A DNA stretch of 15,221 nucleotides from Candidatus Nanohaloarchaea archaeon (GTDB taxonomy: Archaea; Nanohalarchaeota; Nanosalinia; Nanosalinales; Nanosalinaceae). The position numbers were made by a program, and so were the translations under genes. Under the pieces are notes generated by a model that was given only the letters and a program-made list of their open reading frames with translations, was not told the DNA's origin and did not search any database. Location: NCBI GenBank assembly GCA_041640035.1, contig JBEQBC010000015.1:1-15221 (forward strand), in the 5' to 3' direction. Positions 3,871-15,221 of this stretch are shown piece by piece. Within the stretch, counting starts at the first letter, position 1. The number at the start of each line of letters is the position of its first letter.

Positions 3871-4302
3871 ATGAACCAGAACTTCCTGAGAGAAGTACTT
3901 ACAGGAGAATCCAGAGCATACGGCTTCACAATCGCGTTCTGGGGCTCAGGACAGGCACTAGCATACCATACCACATCGATACTGCCAACAAATGTTTTCA
4001 TGTACGGAGTAGGCGCAGTAACCGGTTTCAGCATCATGGCCTACTTCGCTTTCCGTGAAGCTCTGAGACCTGCCAAATATGAGGAAGAGCCTGAGTACAT
4101 GGTTATGAGCATGATGCATTATCTAGCCGCTTTACTGCCGATATTACTAGCTTACATCTACGGAAGTTTCATAGAAGGAAATGCACTGTTCTTCGCTACA
4201 GGCGCATCTGTATCACTGGTATACAATATAGCGATGATCGCCGAAGAGCTTTTCTCAGAGGAAGCTCATTACCTTGAGACGAAGCTTATGGAAGGTTTAT
4301 GA
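3871..4302 (+). CDS. Small integral membrane protein of unknown function (about 4 TM)
   Basis: Four hydrophobic segments and an acidic C-terminus. Start moved to ATG 3871 (MNQNFLREV) on TATA spacing; the ORF-track extension from 3817 runs through the promoter. Confidence 0.7.
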   Translation: MNQNFLREVLTGESRAYGFTIAFWGSGQALAYHTTSILPTNVFMYGVGAVTGFSIMAYFAFREALRPAKYEEEPEYMVMSMMHYLAALLPILLAYIYGSFIEGNALFFATGASVSLVYNIAMIAEELFSEEAHYLETKLMEGL

Positions 4303-5046
4303 GATATCCTTCCACTTACCACCGTATACATATCCATTCATCCTGTTTTCTTTAGCCAGGTGGCGGAAGACTTCTTCTAGATCTTTTTCACCAGTTTCAT
4401 TTATCTTGGAGAATATCTCTGGTTCTAGTATGTATGTCCCTGCGTTGATGAGTCTTGTGTCCGGTTTGCTTGGTTTTTCCTCAAAACCGAGTACTTTTCT
4501 ACCTTTCAGAGTTACGACTCCGTAGTTTGATGCGTCCTGAACTGTTGTCAGTGCTACTGTTGCCGGTCCTTCCTCTTCTCTGTGTGTTTCCAGCATTTCT
4601 TTGAAGTCTACATCTGATATCACATGTCCGTTGAGGGCTACGAAGGTGTTTCCTATCTTCTCTTCTGCTTTGCTGAGTGCTGAAGCTGTTCCCTCCGGTG
4701 ATTTTTCTTCTATGTATTCGAGTGTGACGCCTTCGTGTTTGGAGCCGAAGTTCGGTTCTATCTCATCTCTGTTGTCCCCTACGAGAAGAATCGCTCTTTT
4801 GATCCCTTCCTGCGCCAGATGTTCGATTATATGGCTGAGCACAGGTTTTCCTTCGTGGAGAGTGAGGGTTTCGTTCTCCGAGTCTCCGCACAGTATTACT
4901 GCTGTATCCAGTCCTTTGGCCTGGAAGTAATCCCCTGTTATCTTCTCCATCATCTGGGACCGGTTGATATCGTAGTTGCTGGCCTCCTTATCTATCTTGT
5001 TTACAAGTTCCTGATCCAGTGTGAGAGATACCCTCTTCTTCGGCAT
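4297..5046 (-). CDS. RHH (CopG/MetJ-like) domain fused to a degenerate sugar-phosphate nucleotidyltransferase domain
   Basis: The N-terminal KKRVSLTLDQELVNKIDKEA....INRSQMMEKI fits the RHH strand-helix-helix pattern. The rest is NTP_transferase-like (AVILCG, GKPVL.HII, PEGTASAL, YGVV, FEEKP, INAGTYIL), but the GGxGTRL..PK loop is missing. Confidence 0.82.
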   Translation of the reverse strand: MPKKRVSLTLDQELVNKIDKEASNYDINRSQMMEKITGDYFQAKGLDTAVILCGDSENETLTLHEGKPVLSHIIEHLAQEGIKRAILLVGDNRDEIEPNFGSKHEGVTLEYIEEKSPEGTASALSKAEEKIGNTFVALNGHVISDVDFKEMLETHREEEGPATVALTTVQDASNYGVVTLKGRKVLGFEEKPSKPDTRLINAGTYILEPEIFSKINETGEKDLEEVFRHLAKENRMNGYVYGGKWKDIS

Positions 5047-5123: not shown

Positions 5124-6038
5124 TCACATGTAGCCGAGGCTTCTCAGCTTGTCCATGATCTCTTTGTCGTCTTTGTTCTGTGCTCTGCCTGCTCGTTCTT
5201 TGGTGTTCTCTACATCTTGTAGCCATGCTGGTTCTTCTGCTGACTTGTCTGTGGAGACTTCTGATCCAAGGGATCTGAATCCTGCCCAGTACTTTGGACT
5301 GATAGGTACATCGTCTTTGGTTAGTCCTTCTGGGAGGTCGTCAGGTGTTTCTGGGTATTCTTCGATTTCTACTCCTGTGATGTCTGGTACCATGTGGAAC
5401 CATGATACATCCCATACATCTCGTTCGTCTAGCTGCAGGATTGGGTGTACTCTGATGTGGTCTGGGTCTTCTCGTGGGCTGTAGAATTCTTCGTCGCCAC
5501 GGCTCTCGTGTTCGTCCCAGCGTACTCCGTTGATCACTGCTTCGATATTGTGGTTTTCCAGGAGTTCGTTCATCGGTACTGTCTTGAGTAGGTGGTTTCC
5601 TGCTTCTGTATCCATTAGCCATGGTACTTCTTCGTAGTCTCCTACTTCTTCGGCTGCTTTCTGGTTTCTGTCGTTGAGTTCTGCGACAGGTACTTTGTCG
5701 CCTGGCTGGTCGGCTTTCTCGATCAGGTCTTCGTTCTTGGCAGTCATTACTTCGAATCCCCAGTTGTCGGCTAGTCTTTCGACATAGTCTTCTAGTTCGT
5801 CGAAGTGCTGTCCGTGGTCTACGAACATGAACCGTGGTTTGTCGAATCCGTGTTCTTCACAGACTCTTTTGACGATCCATGCGGTCAGTGTGGAGTCTTT
5901 TCCTCCTGTGAATCCGATGACTACATTTTCTGAGTCGTGTTCTTCGAGTGCTCGTTTGACGACATCTTCTCCTGCTTTGATTTTGGCGTTGAGAGGTGCG
6001 TTTTCAATTTCGTCTCGTGTTACAGGTGCTTCTGGCAT
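5124..6038 (-). CDS. cysD: Sulfate adenylyltransferase subunit 2-like protein (PAPS-reductase/PP-loop family)
   Basis: PP-loop FTGGKDS, plus VDHGQHF, LKT, GVRWDEHESR, RVHPI and FRSLG. ERAGR resembles CysD ERQGR, and the terminal LGYM resembles CysD GYF. It lacks the ECGLH tail and Fe-S cysteines of APS/PAPS reductases. SD AGGTGA is present upstream. Confidence 0.72.
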   Translation of the reverse strand: MPEAPVTRDEIENAPLNAKIKAGEDVVKRALEEHDSENVVIGFTGGKDSTLTAWIVKRVCEEHGFDKPRFMFVDHGQHFDELEDYVERLADNWGFEVMTAKNEDLIEKADQPGDKVPVAELNDRNQKAAEEVGDYEEVPWLMDTEAGNHLLKTVPMNELLENHNIEAVINGVRWDEHESRGDEEFYSPREDPDHIRVHPILQLDERDVWDVSWFHMVPDITGVEIEEYPETPDDLPEGLTKDDVPISPKYWAGFRSLGSEVSTDKSAEEPAWLQDVENTKERAGRAQNKDDKEIMDKLRSLGYM

Positions 6039-6060
6039 TAGTTGGTTTGTTCACCTAGTA

Positions 6061-6843
6061 TTAGTTTTCCGGATAATCGTGTCCGTAATGGTTTAGGATA
6101 GCTTTTGCGACATCTCCAGGCTGATCTATCTCAAAATCAACATTATTCGTGATCAAAACCGCGTCCTCATGATGATCTCCCTCTAGTTTACCGTGAGGCG
6201 TTTCTTCTGGCAGCGTCTGGACTCTTCCTTCTCCGAACTCTGCGAAGCCGTGGTCCGAAAGCACGATCAAAGGTTCATCGCTGTCGAAATCATAATATTC
6301 GAGTAGTTCGCCAAGTACTTCATCCATCTTCTTGTACCAGTCCAGGATGAGGTCTTTGTCGTTCCAGTAGAAATGTGAGACGCGGTCGAGCTGCATGAAG
6401 ACAACTGCGAAGAACTCTGGATCATCCTCCAGGACTTCCTTGCTTTTTTCGATCAGTTTCTGTCGGTCTGCTTCCAGTTCGTCAAGGTCGCTGCTGACTC
6501 CGAAACCTTCAGGCTCGTAACTTGTTTTATAGTTTATCGGCGGAATCACGGCCGGTATCTGAAGAATCTTTGAGTCAACATCCGGCATCTTTTCCCAGAC
6601 GAACTCTCCGTCAATATCGCTCTGTTTCTGGAGTTCGTCTTCGACCACGAAGTCTTTATGACCGTGCTCATCCTGCCGCAGGCCTGTGAATATTGAGGTC
6701 CAGAGAGGCGCGGATTTAGGTGTTTCCTCGACCGTGACTGTTTTGTGGTTGCATTCTTTCATCAGTCGGTCGAAGTTCGGTAGTTCGTCTCTATGTGGTT
6801 TTATCATGTCCCATGTGGCCGCGTCTATTCCGATAACTTTCAT
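6061..6843 (-). CDS. Alkaline phosphatase superfamily protein (NPP/phosphodiesterase type), compact form
   Basis: Contains GIDAATW, PKSAPLWTSIFTG (Ser at the nucleophile position), LDRVSH, LSDHGF and GDHHEDA. SD GGAGG is 11 nt upstream. Confidence 0.85.
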   Translation of the reverse strand: MKVIGIDAATWDMIKPHRDELPNFDRLMKECNHKTVTVEETPKSAPLWTSIFTGLRQDEHGHKDFVVEDELQKQSDIDGEFVWEKMPDVDSKILQIPAVIPPINYKTSYEPEGFGVSSDLDELEADRQKLIEKSKEVLEDDPEFFAVVFMQLDRVSHFYWNDKDLILDWYKKMDEVLGELLEYYDFDSDEPLIVLSDHGFAEFGEGRVQTLPEETPHGKLEGDHHEDAVLITNNVDFEIDQPGDVAKAILNHYGHDYPEN

Positions 6844-6861
6844 TTTGGTTCTTGCCTCCGT

Positions 6862-7065
6862 TTATCTTTCCATGTATCCGAGTTTTTCGAGTTTCTTGCC
6901 GATCTCCTTGATCTCCTGCTCACTCATCTTTTCTCCTGATTCCATATCCTGTAGGACCAAGTGTTTGATGTATTCTTTCGGTGTTGAGAAGTTCTGGTCG
7001 TCGATATGTTCCTCTACATCGCCAAGAAATTCCTTTTTGAAGGAGATCGTGGTGTAGTCGGACAT
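6862..7065 (-). CDS. Small RHH/CopG-like protein with a C-terminal LxxLGY helix
   Basis: YTTISF strand followed by two helices (FSTPKEYIKHLV); ends IGKKLEKLGYMER. It has its own TATA box. Confidence 0.78.
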   Translation of the reverse strand: MSDYTTISFKKEFLGDVEEHIDDQNFSTPKEYIKHLVLQDMESGEKMSEQEIKEIGKKLEKLGYMER

Positions 7066-7089
7066 TAAGAAGAAAGTGTAGATAGGATG

Positions 7090-7098
7090 TTTATATAA
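7090..7098 (-). promoter_or_regulatory. TATA box for the RHH-AlkP-cysD operon (leaderless)
   Basis: TTATATAAA on the minus strand, 25-33 nt upstream of ATG 7065. Confidence 0.6.
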
Positions 7099-7113
7099 CC
7101 TAATTATATTTAA

Positions 7114-7338
7114 TTAGTCTAGGTATCCTAGTCCTTTCAGTCTCTCTTTGACTTTCTCTTCGTCTTCTTCACTGAATTCTTTGTCTTCTTCATCAGCCAT
7201 CTTCTTCTTTGCTTTCTCTGCTACCTGGTTGAGGACATAGTTAATGTACTCTTCCGTGGTATCGAATCCTTTGTCTTCTGCTCTTTTTGCTAGAAGGCCG
7301 TAGGTTTCTTCCGGTATCTCTACAGTGTTGTCAGTCAT
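7114..7338 (-). CDS. Small RHH/CopG-like protein with a C-terminal LxxLGY helix
   Basis: NTVEIP strand, helices including GFDTTEEYINYVL, an acidic linker, and the end EEKVKERLKGLGYLD. Confidence 0.8.
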   Translation of the reverse strand: MTDNTVEIPEETYGLLAKRAEDKGFDTTEEYINYVLNQVAEKAKKKMADEEDKEFSEEDEEKVKERLKGLGYLD

Positions 7339-7387: not shown

Positions 7388-8761
7388 TCATATATCTAGG
7401 TCTGCTACTTCTGAGGTCTGCAACGGTTCAAAGTCCTCTGAGAATATCTCTTGTATTATTTCTCCGTCACAGTCGATTTTTTGGCCTAGATAGTGTGCTA
7501 TTGTTGGTGCTACATCTGTTATGTGCTGTTTTCCAGGATTTTCTGTCTTGAAGCTAGGTCCTGTACCTGCTATGATCCCTGTTCTTCCGTGGATGAATGC
7601 CTGTGTGCGGAAATATTCTTTGCCTGCTGGCTGCATCCCTGAACCTGCGTCCTCTACGGTTTTTGCGACTAGATCGGGGAATCCTTCTTTCTTTTCGTAG
7701 AGCTCTTCTGTTTCTATGACTTCATCGATGATTTCTTCGTTCTCCAGTTTTCTCTTTATCTCTTGTTTCTTGGATTTATCGTTTAAGTTGACATCTGCAT
7801 AGGAGTTTGCGCTTCCTCTGTAACAGTAAGCATCCGAAGATTCAAAATCTATTTTATCCAGGCTTTTTGAGGTTGGTGAGAAGTCTTTACCAGTCTTTGA
7901 TGCAACTATATCGTTTATTGTCTTGAGGTAAGGCTTTAGTTTTGTGCCCGCCAGGTATGATTTTATTGAGAATATCAGACCTGATGAGGAGTTGTTTTCT
8001 TCTCCTTCCTCCATTTTTAGGTATCCTCTGTTCTTTAGCCATGTGTTGATGTAGAAGAAACGATCAACCTTTTTGAATCCGTGATCGGATACAACTAGTA
8101 CATCATCATATTCTTCCATCCTGTCGCCTAGTACTTTGTCTATCTTCCTGTATGATTCAAGCAGTTGATCAAGTGTCTGTGCTTTGTGTGAAGCCGTGTC
8201 CGTTATTTGGTATACCTCTATCCTTACATCGGGGTTTGAACCTATTTCTGAGAAAATTTCCTTCCTTTGATCAAAATTCTCATGGTAAAGATTGAATTTT
8301 TCTTTCGCTGTAGTTGCTTCCGCTTCTTCCCTGAAATCCAGTTCCTGAAGCTTTTCATCAACTTCTTCCGGGTATCCTGATGGATCGCTCACCATCGGGA
8401 AGCCTTCAACCATAACTCCGTTAATCGGCCAGATAGGAGAGTTCCCCGGAACATTAATCAAGTCATATTTTGCATCTGTCTTGTCCCATACCATCTCTCC
8501 CTTCCATTTGCTGGAGGAGGATGGTGAAAGTCCATCATCAGTATCTAGCTCGGTCATGTGATAGAATCCTAAGGTGCCGGGTTGCTGGCCTGAAAACATG
8601 GATACCCATGCTGGAAGAGTGGTAGGAGGTATAGTTGAATCCATATCGGCCAGAAAGCCTTCTGAAAGCAGTTTCTCCATGTTTGGCATCAAGCCTCTGT
8701 CGATCGCTTCGTTAATGTATTCTTTTGATGCACCATCCATGCCAAATATGAGTAAGCTCAC
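7388..8761 (-). CDS. Alkaline phosphatase superfamily protein (type I phosphodiesterase/NPP-like)
   Basis: Contains GMDGA, STIPPTTLPAWVSMFSG, TDTASH, VSDHGF, FIHGRTG and DVAPTI. GTG start with GGAGG 10 nt upstream; ends ADLDI. Confidence 0.88.
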   Translation of the reverse strand: MSLLIFGMDGASKEYINEAIDRGLMPNMEKLLSEGFLADMDSTIPPTTLPAWVSMFSGQQPGTLGFYHMTELDTDDGLSPSSSSKWKGEMVWDKTDAKYDLINVPGNSPIWPINGVMVEGFPMVSDPSGYPEEVDEKLQELDFREEAEATTAKEKFNLYHENFDQRKEIFSEIGSNPDVRIEVYQITDTASHKAQTLDQLLESYRKIDKVLGDRMEEYDDVLVVSDHGFKKVDRFFYINTWLKNRGYLKMEEGEENNSSSGLIFSIKSYLAGTKLKPYLKTINDIVASKTGKDFSPTSKSLDKIDFESSDAYCYRGSANSYADVNLNDKSKKQEIKRKLENEEIIDEVIETEELYEKKEGFPDLVAKTVEDAGSGMQPAGKEYFRTQAFIHGRTGIIAGTGPSFKTENPGKQHITDVAPTIAHYLGQKIDCDGEIIQEIFSEDFEPLQTSEVADLDI

Positions 8762-8824: not shown

Positions 8825-10234
8825 CTACAGATCAAGATCAGCGATATCTTCCCCTTCGCTATAGTTTGTTTCCTCAAGTATATCCTCTCTGACTTGGCCG
8901 CTGTTAGCCGATACCTGCCCATCGATAGCCTGAATAGTTGAGGCTACATCTAGAAGGTGAGCATCTTGCTGTTCATTACTGAATGCCGGTCCTTCACCCA
9001 TCCAGAGACCTTCCTTGTTGTGTACAACAGCTGAAGTGTTGTGGAACTTGTTTGTGTAAAGTTCTCCGCCTATTACAGTATTATCTTCAGCTTCTACAAT
9101 CAAATCAGGCATCTTATCAGTGAAACCGAGTTCATCAGCTTTATAGACTTCTTTAATGTACTCTTCTGTTTCGAGCTGCTGCTTGACTTCTTCTGCTTTC
9201 TCTGAACGGTTTTCGACTATGCCTTCAGGAAATCTTTCTTTATCGTGTATCCAGATGGCTCCGAAGTTTGAGACTGCGGACAGGTTGGAGAAGGCTTCGG
9301 TTTGAGAAAATTCTATACCGTCCATTATGCCGCTCTTGCCTGGCTGGAGATCTTTCCCAGTGTTTGACTCTATCAAGTTCTTGGTTTTTTTCATGAAAGG
9401 TTTAAGACCTAGTTTCAGGCCAATCTGTACAGCTCTATCCATCAAGGTTTTGGAAACTGCTTCCTCACTTTCTTTGTACTTTGTATATCCTTTTTCTCTC
9501 AGCCAGGCGTTCATGTAGAGCTTTCTACCGGTATTACCCGAGCCATGATCTGAAGTAACCATCAGGTTCCAGTTATTTTTGTTACAGAGTTCCCTGAATT
9601 TTCCAAGCGCTTCATCCGCTTTCAGGTATGCTTTTTTCATCTCTGACTCTTCATCGACATCGTGCATGTATGTGTCGATTATTCTGAATACTGAGAACGC
9701 TCTTTCGAACTCTCTGTTTTCCAGCAGCCATTTGAATATCTTCACATTCTGTTCAAAGTTGTAGCCGGCTACTTCCTGTTTACCGCCCTCATTGAGAGCT
9801 TTGAAATCGAAATCTAGTTCTTCTTTGATTTCCTGTTCGAGCTCCTCTGACTGGAACTCTATCTCCTCTGCTTTCATGAAGCCAGATATCATATCGCTGT
9901 TTATTTCATAGCCTGGCGTGGTCCCTGGAACTCTGAAGCTTATCGTTTTCTTATCGCTGTCGATTATTGATTTGCCTTTGAAGAAGCTTGAGTTAACTGG
10001 TGTGATTTCATAATTTTCGAAGTCTAGGTTACCGAAGTCCCATGCCTCGAACTCTCCTGGTTTCTTGCCTGACAGCATGCACATCCATGCCGGTACTGTG
10101 ATAGGTGGCTTGATACTTTCCAGTTCTCCATGGAAGCCGTTATCCATTATTGCCTGAAAGTTAGGGAGATCTTTCTTCCATTTTTCGACTAGTTCTGGGT
10201 CGGCTCCGTCTAGGCCTATCATTACTGTCGGCAT
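8825..10234 (-). CDS. Alkaline phosphatase superfamily protein (type I phosphodiesterase/NPP-like)
   Basis: Contains GLDGA, PPITVPAWMCMLSG, IDTYMH, TSDHG and VHNKEG; ends ADLDL. Start moved to ATG 10234 (MPTVMIGLDG) by alignment with the paralogs; the longer ORF overlaps the flippase. Confidence 0.88.
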   Translation of the reverse strand: MPTVMIGLDGADPELVEKWKKDLPNFQAIMDNGFHGELESIKPPITVPAWMCMLSGKKPGEFEAWDFGNLDFENYEITPVNSSFFKGKSIIDSDKKTISFRVPGTTPGYEINSDMISGFMKAEEIEFQSEELEQEIKEELDFDFKALNEGGKQEVAGYNFEQNVKIFKWLLENREFERAFSVFRIIDTYMHDVDEESEMKKAYLKADEALGKFRELCNKNNWNLMVTSDHGSGNTGRKLYMNAWLREKGYTKYKESEEAVSKTLMDRAVQIGLKLGLKPFMKKTKNLIESNTGKDLQPGKSGIMDGIEFSQTEAFSNLSAVSNFGAIWIHDKERFPEGIVENRSEKAEEVKQQLETEEYIKEVYKADELGFTDKMPDLIVEAEDNTVIGGELYTNKFHNTSAVVHNKEGLWMGEGPAFSNEQQDAHLLDVASTIQAIDGQVSANSGQVREDILEETNYSEGEDIADLDL

Positions 10235-10257
10235 ATGAGAGGAAGGTGTTTTAATCG

Positions 10258-10266
10258 CTTTTATAC
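10258..10266. promoter_or_regulatory. Bidirectional TATA element between the AlkP and flippase genes
   Basis: CTTTTATAC is centred at 10262, exactly midway between the divergent ATGs at 10234 and 10290 (24-31 nt from each). Confidence 0.6.
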
Positions 10267-10289
10267 CTTCGATTAACTGAAATGGATAT

Positions 10290-11852
10290 ATGGCCTCGGA
10301 AGAAAAGGAAAACGCCATAAAGTCGATCTTCAAGGGCGGCACCATTGTTTTCCTTGGAGTGATAGCCTCGAAGTTCATGGGTCTGGGCTACCGCGTACTT
10401 GTAGGTAGATACCTTGGTCCCGCGGATTACGGAGTGATATCTGTCATGATGGCTGTTTTCTCGGTTTCGACTACTTTGGTGTACATCGGGCTTCCTAACG
10501 GCATACAGAGGTATATATCGTACTATCTGGAACAAGATGATAGGGAGTCTGCGCGAGGAACTGTTAGAACCGGTTTCAAGCTTTTGACAGCTACTTCAGT
10601 TATTGGCGGCATAATATTATTTGCTATAGCTCCATGGCTTTCTAACACGGTTTTTAATGAGCCTAAGGCGATTTGGCCGATCCGTATGATGGCGGTTATT
10701 CTTCCTTTCCGTGCTTACACGCTGATATTCACCCGTATAACGAATGCTTTTGAGAAGATGCAGTATCAGGTTATTACGGGCCGTATTTATGCGAATTTTT
10801 CCAAGATGCTGGTTGCAGCGATACTCGTAGGTCTTGGAACCGGTTATATGGGTGCGGCAGCAGGTTACGCGTTTGGATTTGGTTCAGCTGCTTTTGTAGG
10901 AGGTTACTTTGCATACAAGGTCTTTCCAGATGCATTTTCGCTTTCAAAGCCGGTAACACATAATTATAGCGAGCTTTTCCATCATTCTTTTCCTCTTATG
11001 GCGGCCGGGCTTTTCGGAATAATAACAGGTCACATCGATACCTTCATGCTTCAGATTTTCCGTGACTCTACTCAGGTCGGGATCTATCAGGCAGCCTATC
11101 CTTTCGCCATGTTGATGACTACTGGTCTTTCTATGTTTAGCAGCATATTTCTCTCTAATGCCTCTAAATTAGCATCTCAAGGTAACGAAGGTGATCTTGT
11201 TTCCACATACAGAACCGTTATCAAATGGGTGTCGATCGTTACTGTACCGGTCTTCCTGATTATATTTGCCTTCCCTAAAACAGCGCTTATAGTGTATGGA
11301 GCAGAATACTACAGCGCTACAAATGTATTGAGAGTTCTATTAGTCGGATTTATGTTAAGTGCGTTGATAGGTCCTGCCAGCAATATCTATCAGGCCTATG
11401 ATCGGACAAAACTTAATCTTGTAGCCTCCATAATAATTGCTACGGTTAATGCTGGCATAAACTATGTTTTAATACCTCAGAACACCTGGTACGGTGGTCC
11501 TATGGGTGCTGCTATCGCGTCAACTATCGCTTTTGCGGCAGTATTCATTTTCCATTTCGGAACTCTTTACCGAATTCTTGGCGGACAGCCTTTCCGTTTC
11601 TCGCTTTTGAAGATCTGGGTTTCAGGATTGGTAAGTATAGGGGTAGTTTACGGCATTTCCAACCTTCTGTTCAATATTACTCCTGTATGGTTCTTCGCAG
11701 TGAATCTAGGCATATTTGGTGCAATCTATGGAGTGCTTTTACTTGTAAGCAGAACTATAGAGGAGGAAGACTTAGTGGTGCTGCGTGCATTGAGAGATAA
11801 AACAGGTCTGGAACTTGGATTTGTTGAGAAAATCGTGAGAAAGTTCAGTTAG
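10290..11852 (+). CDS. Oligosaccharide flippase (MOP superfamily, Wzx/AglR-like)
   Basis: About 14 TM helices, with RYLGPADYG, GLPNGIQRYIS, ELFHHSFPL, IDTFML....STQVGIYQAA and NYVLIP...GPMGAAIAS. Confidence 0.9.
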   Translation: MASEEKENAIKSIFKGGTIVFLGVIASKFMGLGYRVLVGRYLGPADYGVISVMMAVFSVSTTLVYIGLPNGIQRYISYYLEQDDRESARGTVRTGFKLLTATSVIGGIILFAIAPWLSNTVFNEPKAIWPIRMMAVILPFRAYTLIFTRITNAFEKMQYQVITGRIYANFSKMLVAAILVGLGTGYMGAAAGYAFGFGSAAFVGGYFAYKVFPDAFSLSKPVTHNYSELFHHSFPLMAAGLFGIITGHIDTFMLQIFRDSTQVGIYQAAYPFAMLMTTGLSMFSSIFLSNASKLASQGNEGDLVSTYRTVIKWVSIVTVPVFLIIFAFPKTALIVYGAEYYSATNVLRVLLVGFMLSALIGPASNIYQAYDRTKLNLVASIIIATVNAGINYVLIPQNTWYGGPMGAAIASTIAFAAVFIFHFGTLYRILGGQPFRFSLLKIWVSGLVSIGVVYGISNLLFNITPVWFFAVNLGIFGAIYGVLLLVSRTIEEEDLVVLRALRDKTGLELGFVEKIVRKFS

Positions 11853-13508: not shown

Positions 13509-14957
13509 CTATACATCTAGATCTCCTGTAAAATCGTAGGAAACCTCTTTTTCATTTCTCTGAATTCCGTTCAATACCTCGCCTTCCATATAATCAGGGA
13601 TATCTATACCCATCAAGTGAAGAAGAGTAGGGGCTATATCGATAATTTCAGCATCTACACGCTCACCTTCAACTATACCATCGCCTATAGCACCGAAAAT
13701 ACCGGTGTAGCTATGATAGGCATTGTCAGGTTCGTCAAAGTAACCCTCATCGACTTCTCCCAGTATAAACTCTTTATTCAGTTTGCCTGTCAATTTTGGA
13801 CCTCTTCCTCTGTAATCATCTTCATCTTTGAACTCAAAGCTGTCAAAAACCTTTTCTCCATCAGGGCCAGAAAGTTGCTCGAGCTCTTCCTTCAGCTCAT
13901 GAAGTTTTTCCTCGTCATCAGTGTAGTCAAAGATTAAAGCTGCGCCCATACCTGTGGAGAGGAATTCTGTTTTCGCCAGGTCGATTTTACCATCTTTAAT
14001 TTGATGCGCCATGCCGCTTCTTCCATCAGGCACTGCTTCCTGAACATTTTCCGGCACGAAACGCTTTACAACATCTCTAAGACCTAGTTTATTTACTAAA
14101 TCAGACATATTACTCTTTGTGAAACCCAGATTTTCGAGAAAACTTCTATTATCATTTGTGCTCTGATATCCGTTATCTCTTAGCCATTTATTGATATCAA
14201 ATGTGTATTCGGACATCACCATCCCGTGATCTGACATCAGTAATACCTGATAGCCTTCATCGGTTAGTTCTCCGACTAAATGGCTTAGATAAGAGTCTAC
14301 ATCCTTGAATAAATCCTCTACCTCTTGCTGCTGTGGATCCCAGTAGAAGTGAGTCAGTATATCAGTTATCCTTAGTACTGAAACGAAGAGATCCCAGTCC
14401 TCTCTATTTTTGAGATCTTTTAGAGCTTTTTTTCTTTTATCGTAGACCCTGTATATCTCATCGAGAAAATCCTCATCTTTAAGCGAGTATAATCCTTGAG
14501 CCTCTATTTCGTAGTCATGTTCCTCAAGTAACTCTTCCTTCAGATCTTCAGGATATGTGAAATCGCTATTCTCTGAGGGTGTTGTCATTCCTGAAACCAT
14601 AACCCCGTTCACTTCGTGCGGAGGATATGTGACAGGCACATTAGCCACGCATGTACTCTTCCCGTTCTTTGATGCGACTTCCCAGAAACGCTCATCTTTG
14701 ATATAGCTTCCATTAATGTAATGTACCGAATTATCATCGATAAGTTCAAAACCATAGATACCATGGCTCTCCGGCTTCTTACCTGTCATGAACGACGGCC
14801 ATGCAGAAGCAGTCACCGGCGGAGTAGTCGTCTCAAGCTCTCCCCAGACGCCTTCTTCCTTCAGTTTCTGGAAGAACGGCAGCTTTCCTTCCGCTATCAA
14901 TGGATCAAGTATCCTCCAGGTTGCTCCATCCAGACCGATTACTGCGACCTTGCTCAT
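13509..14957 (-). CDS. Alkaline phosphatase superfamily protein (type I phosphodiesterase/NPP-like)
   Basis: Contains GLDGATW, TTPPVTASAWPSFMTG, TDILTH, MSDHG, AYHSYTG and DIAPTLL; ends GDLDV. Confidence 0.9.
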   Translation of the reverse strand: MSKVAVIGLDGATWRILDPLIAEGKLPFFQKLKEEGVWGELETTTPPVTASAWPSFMTGKKPESHGIYGFELIDDNSVHYINGSYIKDERFWEVASKNGKSTCVANVPVTYPPHEVNGVMVSGMTTPSENSDFTYPEDLKEELLEEHDYEIEAQGLYSLKDEDFLDEIYRVYDKRKKALKDLKNREDWDLFVSVLRITDILTHFYWDPQQQEVEDLFKDVDSYLSHLVGELTDEGYQVLLMSDHGMVMSEYTFDINKWLRDNGYQSTNDNRSFLENLGFTKSNMSDLVNKLGLRDVVKRFVPENVQEAVPDGRSGMAHQIKDGKIDLAKTEFLSTGMGAALIFDYTDDEEKLHELKEELEQLSGPDGEKVFDSFEFKDEDDYRGRGPKLTGKLNKEFILGEVDEGYFDEPDNAYHSYTGIFGAIGDGIVEGERVDAEIIDIAPTLLHLMGIDIPDYMEGEVLNGIQRNEKEVSYDFTGDLDV

Positions 14958-14966
14958 CTAGTACAC

Positions 14967-15221
14967 CTATATATCAAGGTCGTCTACAGCTTTATCCATT
15001 TTGGCTTCAGAACCGTCAGCGAAAATCTCATTTCTTACCTGTCCATCTACATCTGATGGAATCTGAACATCGTAATAGTTGAGAATTGTCGGCATAAGAT
15101 CGTAGATGCTGATGTCCTTCTCGCCTTCAGTAAATTCAGGTCCGTATGCAGCATAGATCCCTTCCTGTCGATGATTGGCTATCCAAGAACTTGCACCGCA
15201 CTCTTCGTCGATTACTTTATC
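14967..15221 (-). CDS. C-terminal part of a fifth alkaline phosphatase superfamily protein (5' partial, absent from the ORF track)
   Basis: Manual translation gives DKVIDEECGASSWIANHRQEGIYAAYGPEFTEGEKDISIYDLMPTILNYYDVQIPSDVDGQVRNEIFADGSEAKMDKAVDDLDI*. This aligns with the paralog C-termini (H...G....GP, D..PT.L, DG.V). Confidence 0.85.
   Translation of the reverse strand, partial: DKVIDEECGASSWIANHRQEGIYAAYGPEFTEGEKDISIYDLMPTILNYYDVQIPSDVDGQVRNEIFADGSEAKMDKAVDDLDI

Follow-up and report, generated by a model that had tools for sequence, protein, structure and literature searches.

A C-terminal LxxLGY helix common to CopG-like regulators and sulfate-activation enzymes of archaea, a candidate pathway-specific docking module

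A sulfate-assimilation cluster has been described in Pyrococcus yayanosii (pych_17520-17560), in which, according to the accessible part of the report, a "putative copG transcription factor" is encoded together with an ATP sulfurylase, a DHH pAp phosphatase, a type I phosphodiesterase and an adenosine 5'-phosphosulfate (APS) kinase (PMC8268124), the DHH enzyme being a 3'-phosphoadenosine 5'-phosphate (PAP) phosphatase in the accessible part of a second source (PMC10322725). Here we analyzed a stretch of 15,221 nucleotides (the window), contig C15 of a nanohaloarchaeal assembly (978,572 bases, 24 contigs, 89% complete), which carries a cluster of glycan and sulfation genes, most of them encoded on the minus strand. 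Four consecutive genes of the window encode a CysD-like protein, a compact member of the alkaline phosphatase (AlkP) superfamily and two small CopG-like proteins of 67 and 74 aa, and all of them except the AlkP gene end in the same short helix, L-x-x-L-G-Y, referred to below as the tail. The gene set and order of the P. yayanosii cluster are those of the commonest arrangement among 79 related loci (small CopG-like gene, Sat, DHH, PF01663 AlkP, APS kinase). The window differs in having the CysD-like and compact AlkP genes instead of Sat, two small genes, and extra AlkP and glycan genes, and tblastn searches of its genome, at the completeness given above, found no APS kinase, Sat, DHH PAP phosphatase, Sulfotransfer_3, sulfate symporter or DUF2061. 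The sulfate-activation cluster and its "copG" label were already known; neither a shared tail nor an operator is mentioned in the accessible part of the P. yayanosii report (PMC8268124).

Two further systems resemble parts of this locus. CysD, the small subunit of the CysDN ATP sulfurylase (E. coli b2752; Pseudomonas syringae 1ZUN), is like the window protein in its PP-loop, in a full-length alignment, and in a conserved ER.GR segment with a GY-hydrophobic terminus after it (...ER.GR...M......GY[MF]), whereas the window protein scores far under the NCBIfam cut-offs for CysD, has no CysN partner detected in this genome, and is paired with the compact AlkP. Repressors of the ribbon-helix-helix (RHH) type with C-terminal tails (RelB, ParD, CcdA, Mnt) share with the small proteins an N-terminal RHH domain, a flexible linker and a short helix, and share with their genes the first position in the operon and a palindromic operator in their own promoter. 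RHH antitoxins bind their partner through the C-terminal tail, and the Mnt repressor oligomerizes through one. Unlike antitoxin genes, the small genes have no accompanying toxin gene, the downstream genes encoding metabolic enzymes instead, and their tail sequence is common to the enzymes of the operon, which to our knowledge has no parallel among antitoxins.

The three endings read ...IMDKLRSLGYM in the CysD-like protein, ...IGKKLEKLGYMER in the 67-aa protein and ...VKERLKGLGYLD in the 74-aa protein, each directly before the stop codon and exactly as quoted in an earlier note on this DNA. That note also stated correctly that the AlkPs of the window carry no LGY tail, the compact enzyme ending in ...HYGHDYPEN, and three complete large AlkPs and a partial open reading frame (ORF) in DLD[ILV]. 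Among the 4337 ORFs of at least 50 aa in the whole genome, L..LGY occurs anywhere in 23 and at no more than three residues from the end in only 4, three of them in the window and one in a sulfatase-like gene on another contig (Table 1). A simple simulation gave P = 7.5e-5 for three of four tagged genes falling within a 4-gene stretch among 1000 genes, and even a loose form of the tail was absent from all 505 unrelated genes in the 79 related loci.

Aligning the endings of three families on the GY pair revealed a shared core, [VIL]-x-x-[RK]-L-x-x-L-G-Y followed by one to three residues, which caps a C-terminal helix of about 15 residues and is preceded by an acidic, flexible linker. The ending was found in 98/120 CysD-like homologues (consensus D..E[IL]M.[RK]LR.LGYM), in 119/120 members of one sulfatase-like family (DEE[VI]..RLE.LGY[RK...]), and in 90/90 small proteins (EEDEEK[VI]KERL[RK]xLGY[LIM](D)), the last set being biased towards tail carriers because the 79 loci were fetched with alignment A1 through a peptide pattern built on the tail's acidic start. 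L(-4), L(-1), G and Y were each at 100% in the small proteins and fixed also in the 119 sulfatase-like sequences; among the 98 CysD-like homologues with GY in the last 8 residues, L(-4), G and Y stood at 100% and L(-1) at 94%. Tail positions were likewise invariant in alignments A3 (38 sequences), A6 (46 sequences), A1 and A5 (67-aa family; L59, L62, G63, Y64), so that the Tyr, said beforehand to be invariant, is indeed so in the small-protein, CysD-like and sulfatase-like alignments. L-x-x-L-G-Y has the form of the classical helix C-cap, in which Gly occupies C' and the C3 and C'' positions are hydrophobic, which is why the bare hexapeptide is also met in PG_binding repeats and as the native terminus of APS kinases. 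As judged from the sequences, the extended match and the acidic linker exceed a mere helix cap.

Neither small protein of the window matched an RHH family of Pfam at E <= 0.1, and their profile found nothing meaningful in the PDB (best E = 0.021, a ribosomal protein). They were assigned to the RHH fold because homologues are named CopG family regulators, as are the atlas clusters of the 74-aa protein, because relatives pass the RHH_1 cut-off of 20.5 (L076:5632-5985, 26.1 bits; L136:2676-2888, 24.9 bits), and because the two families, 67-aa class I and 74-aa class II, are homologous over their full length (hhalign probability 99%).

The promoter of the 67-aa gene contains the palindrome TAATTA-N4-TAATTA, in which a palindromic hexamer occurs twice, 10 bp apart (Thermococcus-type loci have three repeats). 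The element is located 36 nt ahead of the ATG and overlaps the stop codon of the 74-aa gene; no other perfect copy exists in the genome. Allowing at most one mismatch and scanning from -80 to +25 of each gene, we found this element at 26/40 class I genes, whose products carry a ..TT[VI]S.. reading strand, compared to 3/49 class II and 8/659 other genes. The class I genes came from Nanohaloarchaeota, Thermoplasmata, Thermococci, Hadarchaeota, Asgard archaea and Pyrodictiaceae. When the nanohaloarchaeal relatives of the 67-aa protein were split by subtype, the TAATTA type preceded 6/6 genes of the YTT[VI]S subtype and 0/11 of the KTISLP subtype, 7 of these 11 having ATGCATAANTTATGCAT instead. 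This switch of operator with reading strand is as predicted for a sequence-specific autoregulator. The class II 74-aa gene has a Shine-Dalgarno-like GTGAT in front and no TAATTA palindrome. The idea that the small proteins are mere enzyme cofactors or scaffolds found no support: they look like true DNA binders, with a conserved operator that covaries with the reading strand. Comparative evidence shows the 67-aa protein as the predicted reader of the element at 7101-7116 in its own promoter, and both small proteins as putative regulators of the cluster.

The 79 loci belong to Woesearchaeota, Thermoplasmata, Methanosarcinales, Aenigmatarchaeota, Hadarchaeota, Thermococcus, Archaeoglobus, Methanocaldococcus, Asgard archaea, Thermoproteota and a few bacteria. 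Their genes were clustered and the cluster representatives scanned with Pfam. PF01663 AlkPs were the commonest neighbors (36/79 loci) and had the tail in 0/40 complete genes, in agreement with the expectation that tail-less AlkPs co-occur with stand-alone small genes. They were followed by APS kinases (33/79 loci; tail in 6/32, by a loose count that includes native ends), DHH phosphoesterases (29/79; 0/25), Sat-type ATP sulfurylases (28/79; 0/25), CysD-like proteins (17/79; 15/17 complete genes), CysN-like GTPases (11/79; 0/10), Sulfotransfer_3 (9/79), a 240-aa compact AlkP (8/79; 0/8) and DUF2061 (7/79; 2/6), and a sodium:sulfate symporter family also recurred near the small genes. Directly downstream of the 90 small genes, on the same strand, were Sat in 27 cases, CysD-like genes in 12, AlkP genes in 12 and DHH genes in 5. 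Most of these operons encode the complete ordinary pathway to 3'-phosphoadenosine 5'-phosphosulfate (PAPS), with Sat, APS kinase and PAP-phosphatase.

The CysD-like protein of the window aligned with E. coli CysD by BLASTP over residues 38-304 and 29-302, respectively (E = 2e-13), the ends being GYM and GYF. As this alignment runs to the last residue, the ending is an old feature of the family and not an added tag, contrary to what had been supposed. The tail residues M295, L298, R299, L301, G302 and Y303 are invariant in the CysD-like alignment of 38 sequences, as are G46, D48 and S49 of the PP-loop. In the AlphaFold2 (AF2) model (mean predicted local distance difference test, pLDDT, 90.9), residues 292-300 are helical with pLDDT of 61-75, and the tail thus modeled is semi-ordered; Foldseek placed the fold near FMN adenylyltransferases, APS/PAPS reductases and CysD. 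Scores stayed under the curated CysD cut-offs (NF003587, 73.1 vs 195 bits; TIGR02039, 45.3 vs 396.6), a search of the protein's own genome gave 22.9 bits, and phmmer against the PDB left the tail unaligned. Where GY was absent from the last 8 residues (22/120 homologues), most sequences have the motif with a hydrophobic extension behind it, a few being truncated. This extension, 8-20 residues long and similar among its bearers, was seen in about 20/120 (P0047, P0048, P0053, P0058, P0060 and some 15 more); the window gene stops right after LGYM, and its downstream frame is unlike the extension.

Searching the genome by tblastn with E. coli CysN and an archaeal CysN-like protein returned only EF-1-alpha-like matches. 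In other archaea a CysN-like gene follows the tail-bearing CysD-like gene (11 loci), and in 8 loci the 240-aa compact AlkP comes after both; in nanohaloarchaeal loci the compact AlkP adjoins the CysD-like gene. A natural fusion of 570 aa (L071:3462-5174, genome G019) joins an N-terminal compact PF01663 AlkP to a C-terminal CysD-like part that keeps the tail, and because it unites the counterparts of the window genes 6061-6843 and 5124-6038, these two would be expected to work together. On sequence grounds the pair is the only recognizable candidate for sulfate activation in this genome. Residues D7, T35, D153, H157, D197, H198 and H224 of the compact AlkP are invariant (22 sequences), and we take them to be its metal-ligand and nucleophile positions.

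The proposal that the tail is a portable module held up well, since the same [VIL]xx[RK]LxxLGY helix ends PP-loop CysD-like, RHH, APS kinase, sulfatase-like and DUF2061 proteins, and all of these folds sit in a context of sulfate activation or sulfation. A profile made from the four tails of this genome (A2) and searched against 1.84 billion representatives gave 37 matches at E <= 0.001, mostly RHH-plus-tail proteins of 60-90 aa, but also four C-terminal fragments of APS kinases with an added tail, a tandem RHH-tail-RHH-tail protein, two lipoprotein-like bacterial proteins, and unrelated repeat proteins that have the cap alone in common (PG_binding repeats; P0167, P0169, P0181). The tail is appended to APS kinases and sulfatase-like AlkP-superfamily enzymes in nanohaloarchaea, haloarchaea and some bacteria, and the earlier statement that sulfatase-type proteins have such an ending proved well founded, as shown by the 119/120 figure given above. 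Across the phylum, 52/70 genomes had a tail match, and 40 regions fetched from them contained 75 tail-ending ORFs; Pfam assigned the 36 larger ones to Sulfatase (17), APS_kinase (6), Phosphodiest (1), the 570-aa Phosphodiest and PAPS_reduct fusion (1) and DUF7557 (1), with no family for 10. In the APS kinases of nanohaloarchaea and two bacterial metagenome-assembled genomes, the tail is a second copy placed after the protein's own terminal helix and a linker; the native end of this fold, which is part of the solved structure, also reads L-x-x-L-G-Y. The AF2 model of a tail-bearing sulfatase has a core above 90 in pLDDT, a linker (421-432) below 55 and a tail helix (430-443) at 63-74, so that the tail, as modeled, is a tethered helix not packed in cis.

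Some carriers depart from this pattern. The two lipoprotein-like proteins (P0193, P0197; 76-91 aa, signal peptide) have two to three internal E.L[RK].LGY copies, and a 185-aa protein (P0168) consists of two RHH-tail units in tandem; with these internal copies, the motif is not confined to cytoplasmic C-termini. An 84-aa predicted membrane protein of the DUF2061 family (L076:7048-7302, L096:966-1220) ends in ...VIKKLRDLGYI, its gene lying directly after the CysD-like gene in Woesearchaeota, which hints that the module can be membrane-anchored. The tail-bearing sulfatase-like family (A6; L059:4534-5877 and homologues) contains a segment W-T-L-P-S-H with a nearly invariant Thr, presumably the nucleophile motif of sulfatases; a Thr at this place would suit a transferase-type enzyme of the AlkP superfamily and not a formylglycine sulfatase.

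Taken together, the alignments show a module that is native to the CysD family and invariant on the pan-archaeal small CopG/RHH family. We favor, at about an even chance, a reading of the tail as a tethered docking helix, a pathway-specific module of sulfate activation and sulfation that couples regulators and enzymes. It would act as a docking helix on its linker and not as a catalytic group, binding a shared partner site or pairing with other copies of itself, and by either mode regulators and pathway enzymes would be physically coupled. Leading candidate partners would be the tail-less PF01663 AlkPs, the only enzyme family (with its 240-aa compact form) present in both Sat-type and CysD-type operons, and the CysD-like core, which would natively have to accommodate a tail helix. 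Several observations weigh against this. Sat, DHH and APS kinase are the only enzymes that accompany the small gene in some Thermoplasmata loci, which leaves no enzyme as an evident universal partner; in at least one 96%-complete genome (G045) a tail-bearing sulfatase is the sole tail match, with no match to a tail-bearing small protein or CysD-like protein; the 90/90 figure is biased by a retrieval pattern that itself came from the tail; and, given L-x-x-L-G-Y in PG_binding repeats and at the native APS-kinase end, the resemblance could partly be structural convergence. Full convergence, with L-x-x-L-G-Y being just a good helix stop and the endings of CysD, RHH, APS kinase and sulfatase proteins having no function in common, nevertheless seems quite improbable to us. 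The hexapeptide in unrelated repeat proteins, its native place within the APS-kinase fold and the ancestral CysD ending are all in its favor, but it has to contend with a stretch of 10 residues, six of its positions fixed, that comes with an acidic linker on at least five unrelated domains, all in sulfate-activation contexts, with the motif on none of the 505 unrelated neighboring genes, and with APS kinases that bear the tail after their native end. The appended tails stand on disordered linkers and therefore are not the end of a domain helix. Alternatively, the tail might only self-associate, so that RHH dimers on the two TAATTA half-sites pair while the enzymes homo-oligomerize separately, with no complex of regulator and enzyme. 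An operator of two hexamers 10 bp apart, or of the three repeats seen in Thermococcus-type loci, would suit two dimers that bind cooperatively; the tail is a short, flexibly linked amphipathic helix; and a tandem RHH-tail-RHH-tail protein exists (P0168). We consider this unlikely, however, since it leaves the restriction of the helix to the proteins of one pathway unexplained, a helix of 10-12 residues is short for a stable bundle, and the tail persists in class II small proteins, whose genes mostly lack an operator of this kind (present in 3/49).

A catalytic use of the tail, as put forward in the earlier note, would have the small proteins hand it in trans to tail-less AlkPs, with the Tyr carrying sulfate or AMP covalently from CysD-like to AlkP active sites. 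The invariant Tyr and flexible linker, the rank of tail-less PF01663 AlkPs as commonest neighbors of the small genes, the fusion of compact AlkP and CysD-like protein in one genome, and the failure of tblastn to find APS kinase, CysN, Sat or DHH in the window's genome all agree with it. In the homologous PAPS reductases a mobile C-terminal arm serves a covalent sulfo-intermediate, which also counts for a carrier. Against it, the small proteins that bear the tail have an RHH reading head and a conserved operator, most operons hold the full route of Sat, APS kinase and PAP-phosphatase and sometimes an ordinary sulfotransferase, and an arm of its own on every enzyme is unlike the arrangement of known carriers; E. 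coli CysD has the GY end, and we know of no carrier chemistry for it. DltX, with which the small proteins had been compared, is likewise small with a conserved Tyr near its C-terminus, but it is a membrane protein working with MBOAT, whereas the small proteins are soluble, acidic and align with RHH proteins, and none of the 18 window ORFs scanned belonged to an MBOAT or Dlt family. We regard the carrier as very improbable, and give equally little credence to its fullest version, a protein-borne sulfate shuttle in which the CysD-like protein makes APS and loads the sulfuryl group onto a tail Tyr, whether its own or one on the small proteins or sulfatase-like enzymes, AlkP-superfamily enzymes with a Thr nucleophile use the resulting aryl sulfate to sulfate glycans, and the small proteins report loading to the promoter. 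If true, such a Tyr shuttle would permit sulfation without APS kinase or CysN in reduced genomes. In Halobacterium, N-glycan sulfation requires AlkP-superfamily proteins, an observation also in favor of the carrier, and the sulfotransferases VNG1056C and VNG1057C of Halobacterium salinarum N-glycosylation are, like the proteins of the window, sulfatase- or AlkP-like members of an archaeal glycan cluster, a likeness of superfamily and context drawn from the accessible part of the source (PMC11980604). By this parallel, a role in glycan sulfation is plausible for the AlkP and sulfatase-like genes described here.

Two other uses of such an ending were considered and rejected. The E..[VI]..RL..L pattern recalls MIM1-type tails that bind an MIT domain, and no PF04212 match was found in the genome (89% complete) at E <= 0.01. 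Docking to the proteasome through a penultimate Tyr does not fit a Tyr that is always preceded by Gly and, in the small proteins, followed by one to three residues, nor the presence of the ending in CysD of E. coli, which has no proteasome.

Literature searches with the tail strings returned only an unrelated spectrin paper, and those combining CopG, ATP sulfurylase and APS kinase only PMC8268124. In these searches, which covered listings and passages of papers, no published description was found of the tail, of its occurrence on five or more unrelated domains belonging to one pathway, of the pan-archaeal operator, or of the pairing and fusion of CysD-like protein and compact AlkP. If the docking helix is real, it would constitute a pathway-wide prokaryotic C-terminal tag common to a transcription factor and the enzymes under its control, and would point to a physically organized archaeal machinery for sulfate activation and sulfation, or to direct feedback from enzyme to regulator. 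Whatever the mechanism, the tail is a precise motif flagging proteins of the sulfation pathway, many of them unannotated; TAATTA-N4-TAATTA is a candidate operator for a pan-archaeal sulfate regulon; and PF01663 and sulfatase-like AlkP enzymes are firmly linked by genomic context with PAPS metabolism, which fits recent genetics of archaeal glycan sulfation.

Table 1. Features of the window and the fourth tail-ending ORF of the genome
Feature	Position	Strand	Evidence or remark
Sugar-1-phosphate nucleotidyltransferase with N-terminal RHH-like extension	4297..5046	-	NTP_transferase 104.3 bits
CysD-like PP-loop protein, PAPS_reduct domain, 304 aa	5124..6038	-	PF01507 76.8 bits
Native tail helix and LGYM end of the CysD-like protein	encoded ~5127-5165	-	
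Compact AlkP, PF01663, 260 aa, without tail	6061..6843	-	Pfam 86.7 bits, cut-off 23
Small RHH protein, class I, reading strand YTTIS, 67 aa	6862..7065	-	Family alignment and hhalign
Tail ...EIKEIGKKLEKLGYMER of the 67-aa protein	encoded ~6865-6912	-	
TATA-like TTATATAA	~7090-7098		Palindrome 7101-7116 sits just upstream
Operator-like palindrome TAATTAAATATAATTA	7101..7116	not applicable	Upstream of the 67-aa gene
Small RHH-like protein, class II, 74 aa	7114..7338	-	Homologues named CopG family regulators
Acidic linker, then tail ...EEKVKERLKGLGYLD, of the 74-aa protein	tail encoded ~7117-7161	-	
Large PF01663 AlkP, 457 aa, end ...ADLDI, no LGY tail	7388..8761	-	Pfam
Large PF01663 AlkP, ORF of 517 aa, end ...ADLDL, no LGY tail	8825..10378	-	Pfam
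Large PF01663 AlkP, 482 aa, end ...GDLDV, no LGY tail	13509..14957	-	Pfam
Partial ORF (C-terminal piece), end DDLDI	14967-15221		AlkP-like by eye; no Pfam match
GT4 glycosyltransferase, cupin, epimerase, PfkB kinase, HAD protein, 161-aa membrane protein			Also in the window
Flippase, methyltransferase, GT1			Also in the window
Fourth tail-ending ORF, sulfatase-like, 335 aa	C3:80700-81707		Sulfatase E = 0.0053, below cut-off

The large PF01663 AlkPs have a second shared ending, the acidic-hydrophobic ...[DE]x[DG][LIV][DES][FILV] before the stop codon. In nanohaloarchaeal loci L034-L073 its strict form was present in 13/25 large PF01663 ORFs, most of the others ending in G[LI]D[FI], and the LGY tail in 19/31 sulfatase-like ORFs vs none of the 25 large PF01663 ORFs, so that from the sequences the two endings look like alternatives. 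PF01663 AlkPs are strongly expanded in these genomes of about 1 Mb, with at least one in 65/70 and up to 17 matches per genome, and the 5/70 genomes without them also had no tail match. Per-genome counts of tail and PF01663 matches correlated (Spearman 0.71, 70 genomes), a value to which we attach little importance, since these genomes are related and larger clusters raise both counts.

The nucleotidyltransferase gene is the next one downstream of the CysD-like gene, and its product is 54-60% identical to those of related clusters. Its N-terminal RHH-like extension of about 45 aa scored 17.1 bits with RHH_1, under the cut-off, and was rejected as kin of the small-protein family (hhalign probability 0.5%). 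Among the large AlkPs, the ORF at 8825-10378 (-) overlaps a divergent flippase ORF at 10290-11852 (+) by 89 bases; because the other AlkPs begin M..V.G.DG, its true start is probably a Met about 47 codons downstream.

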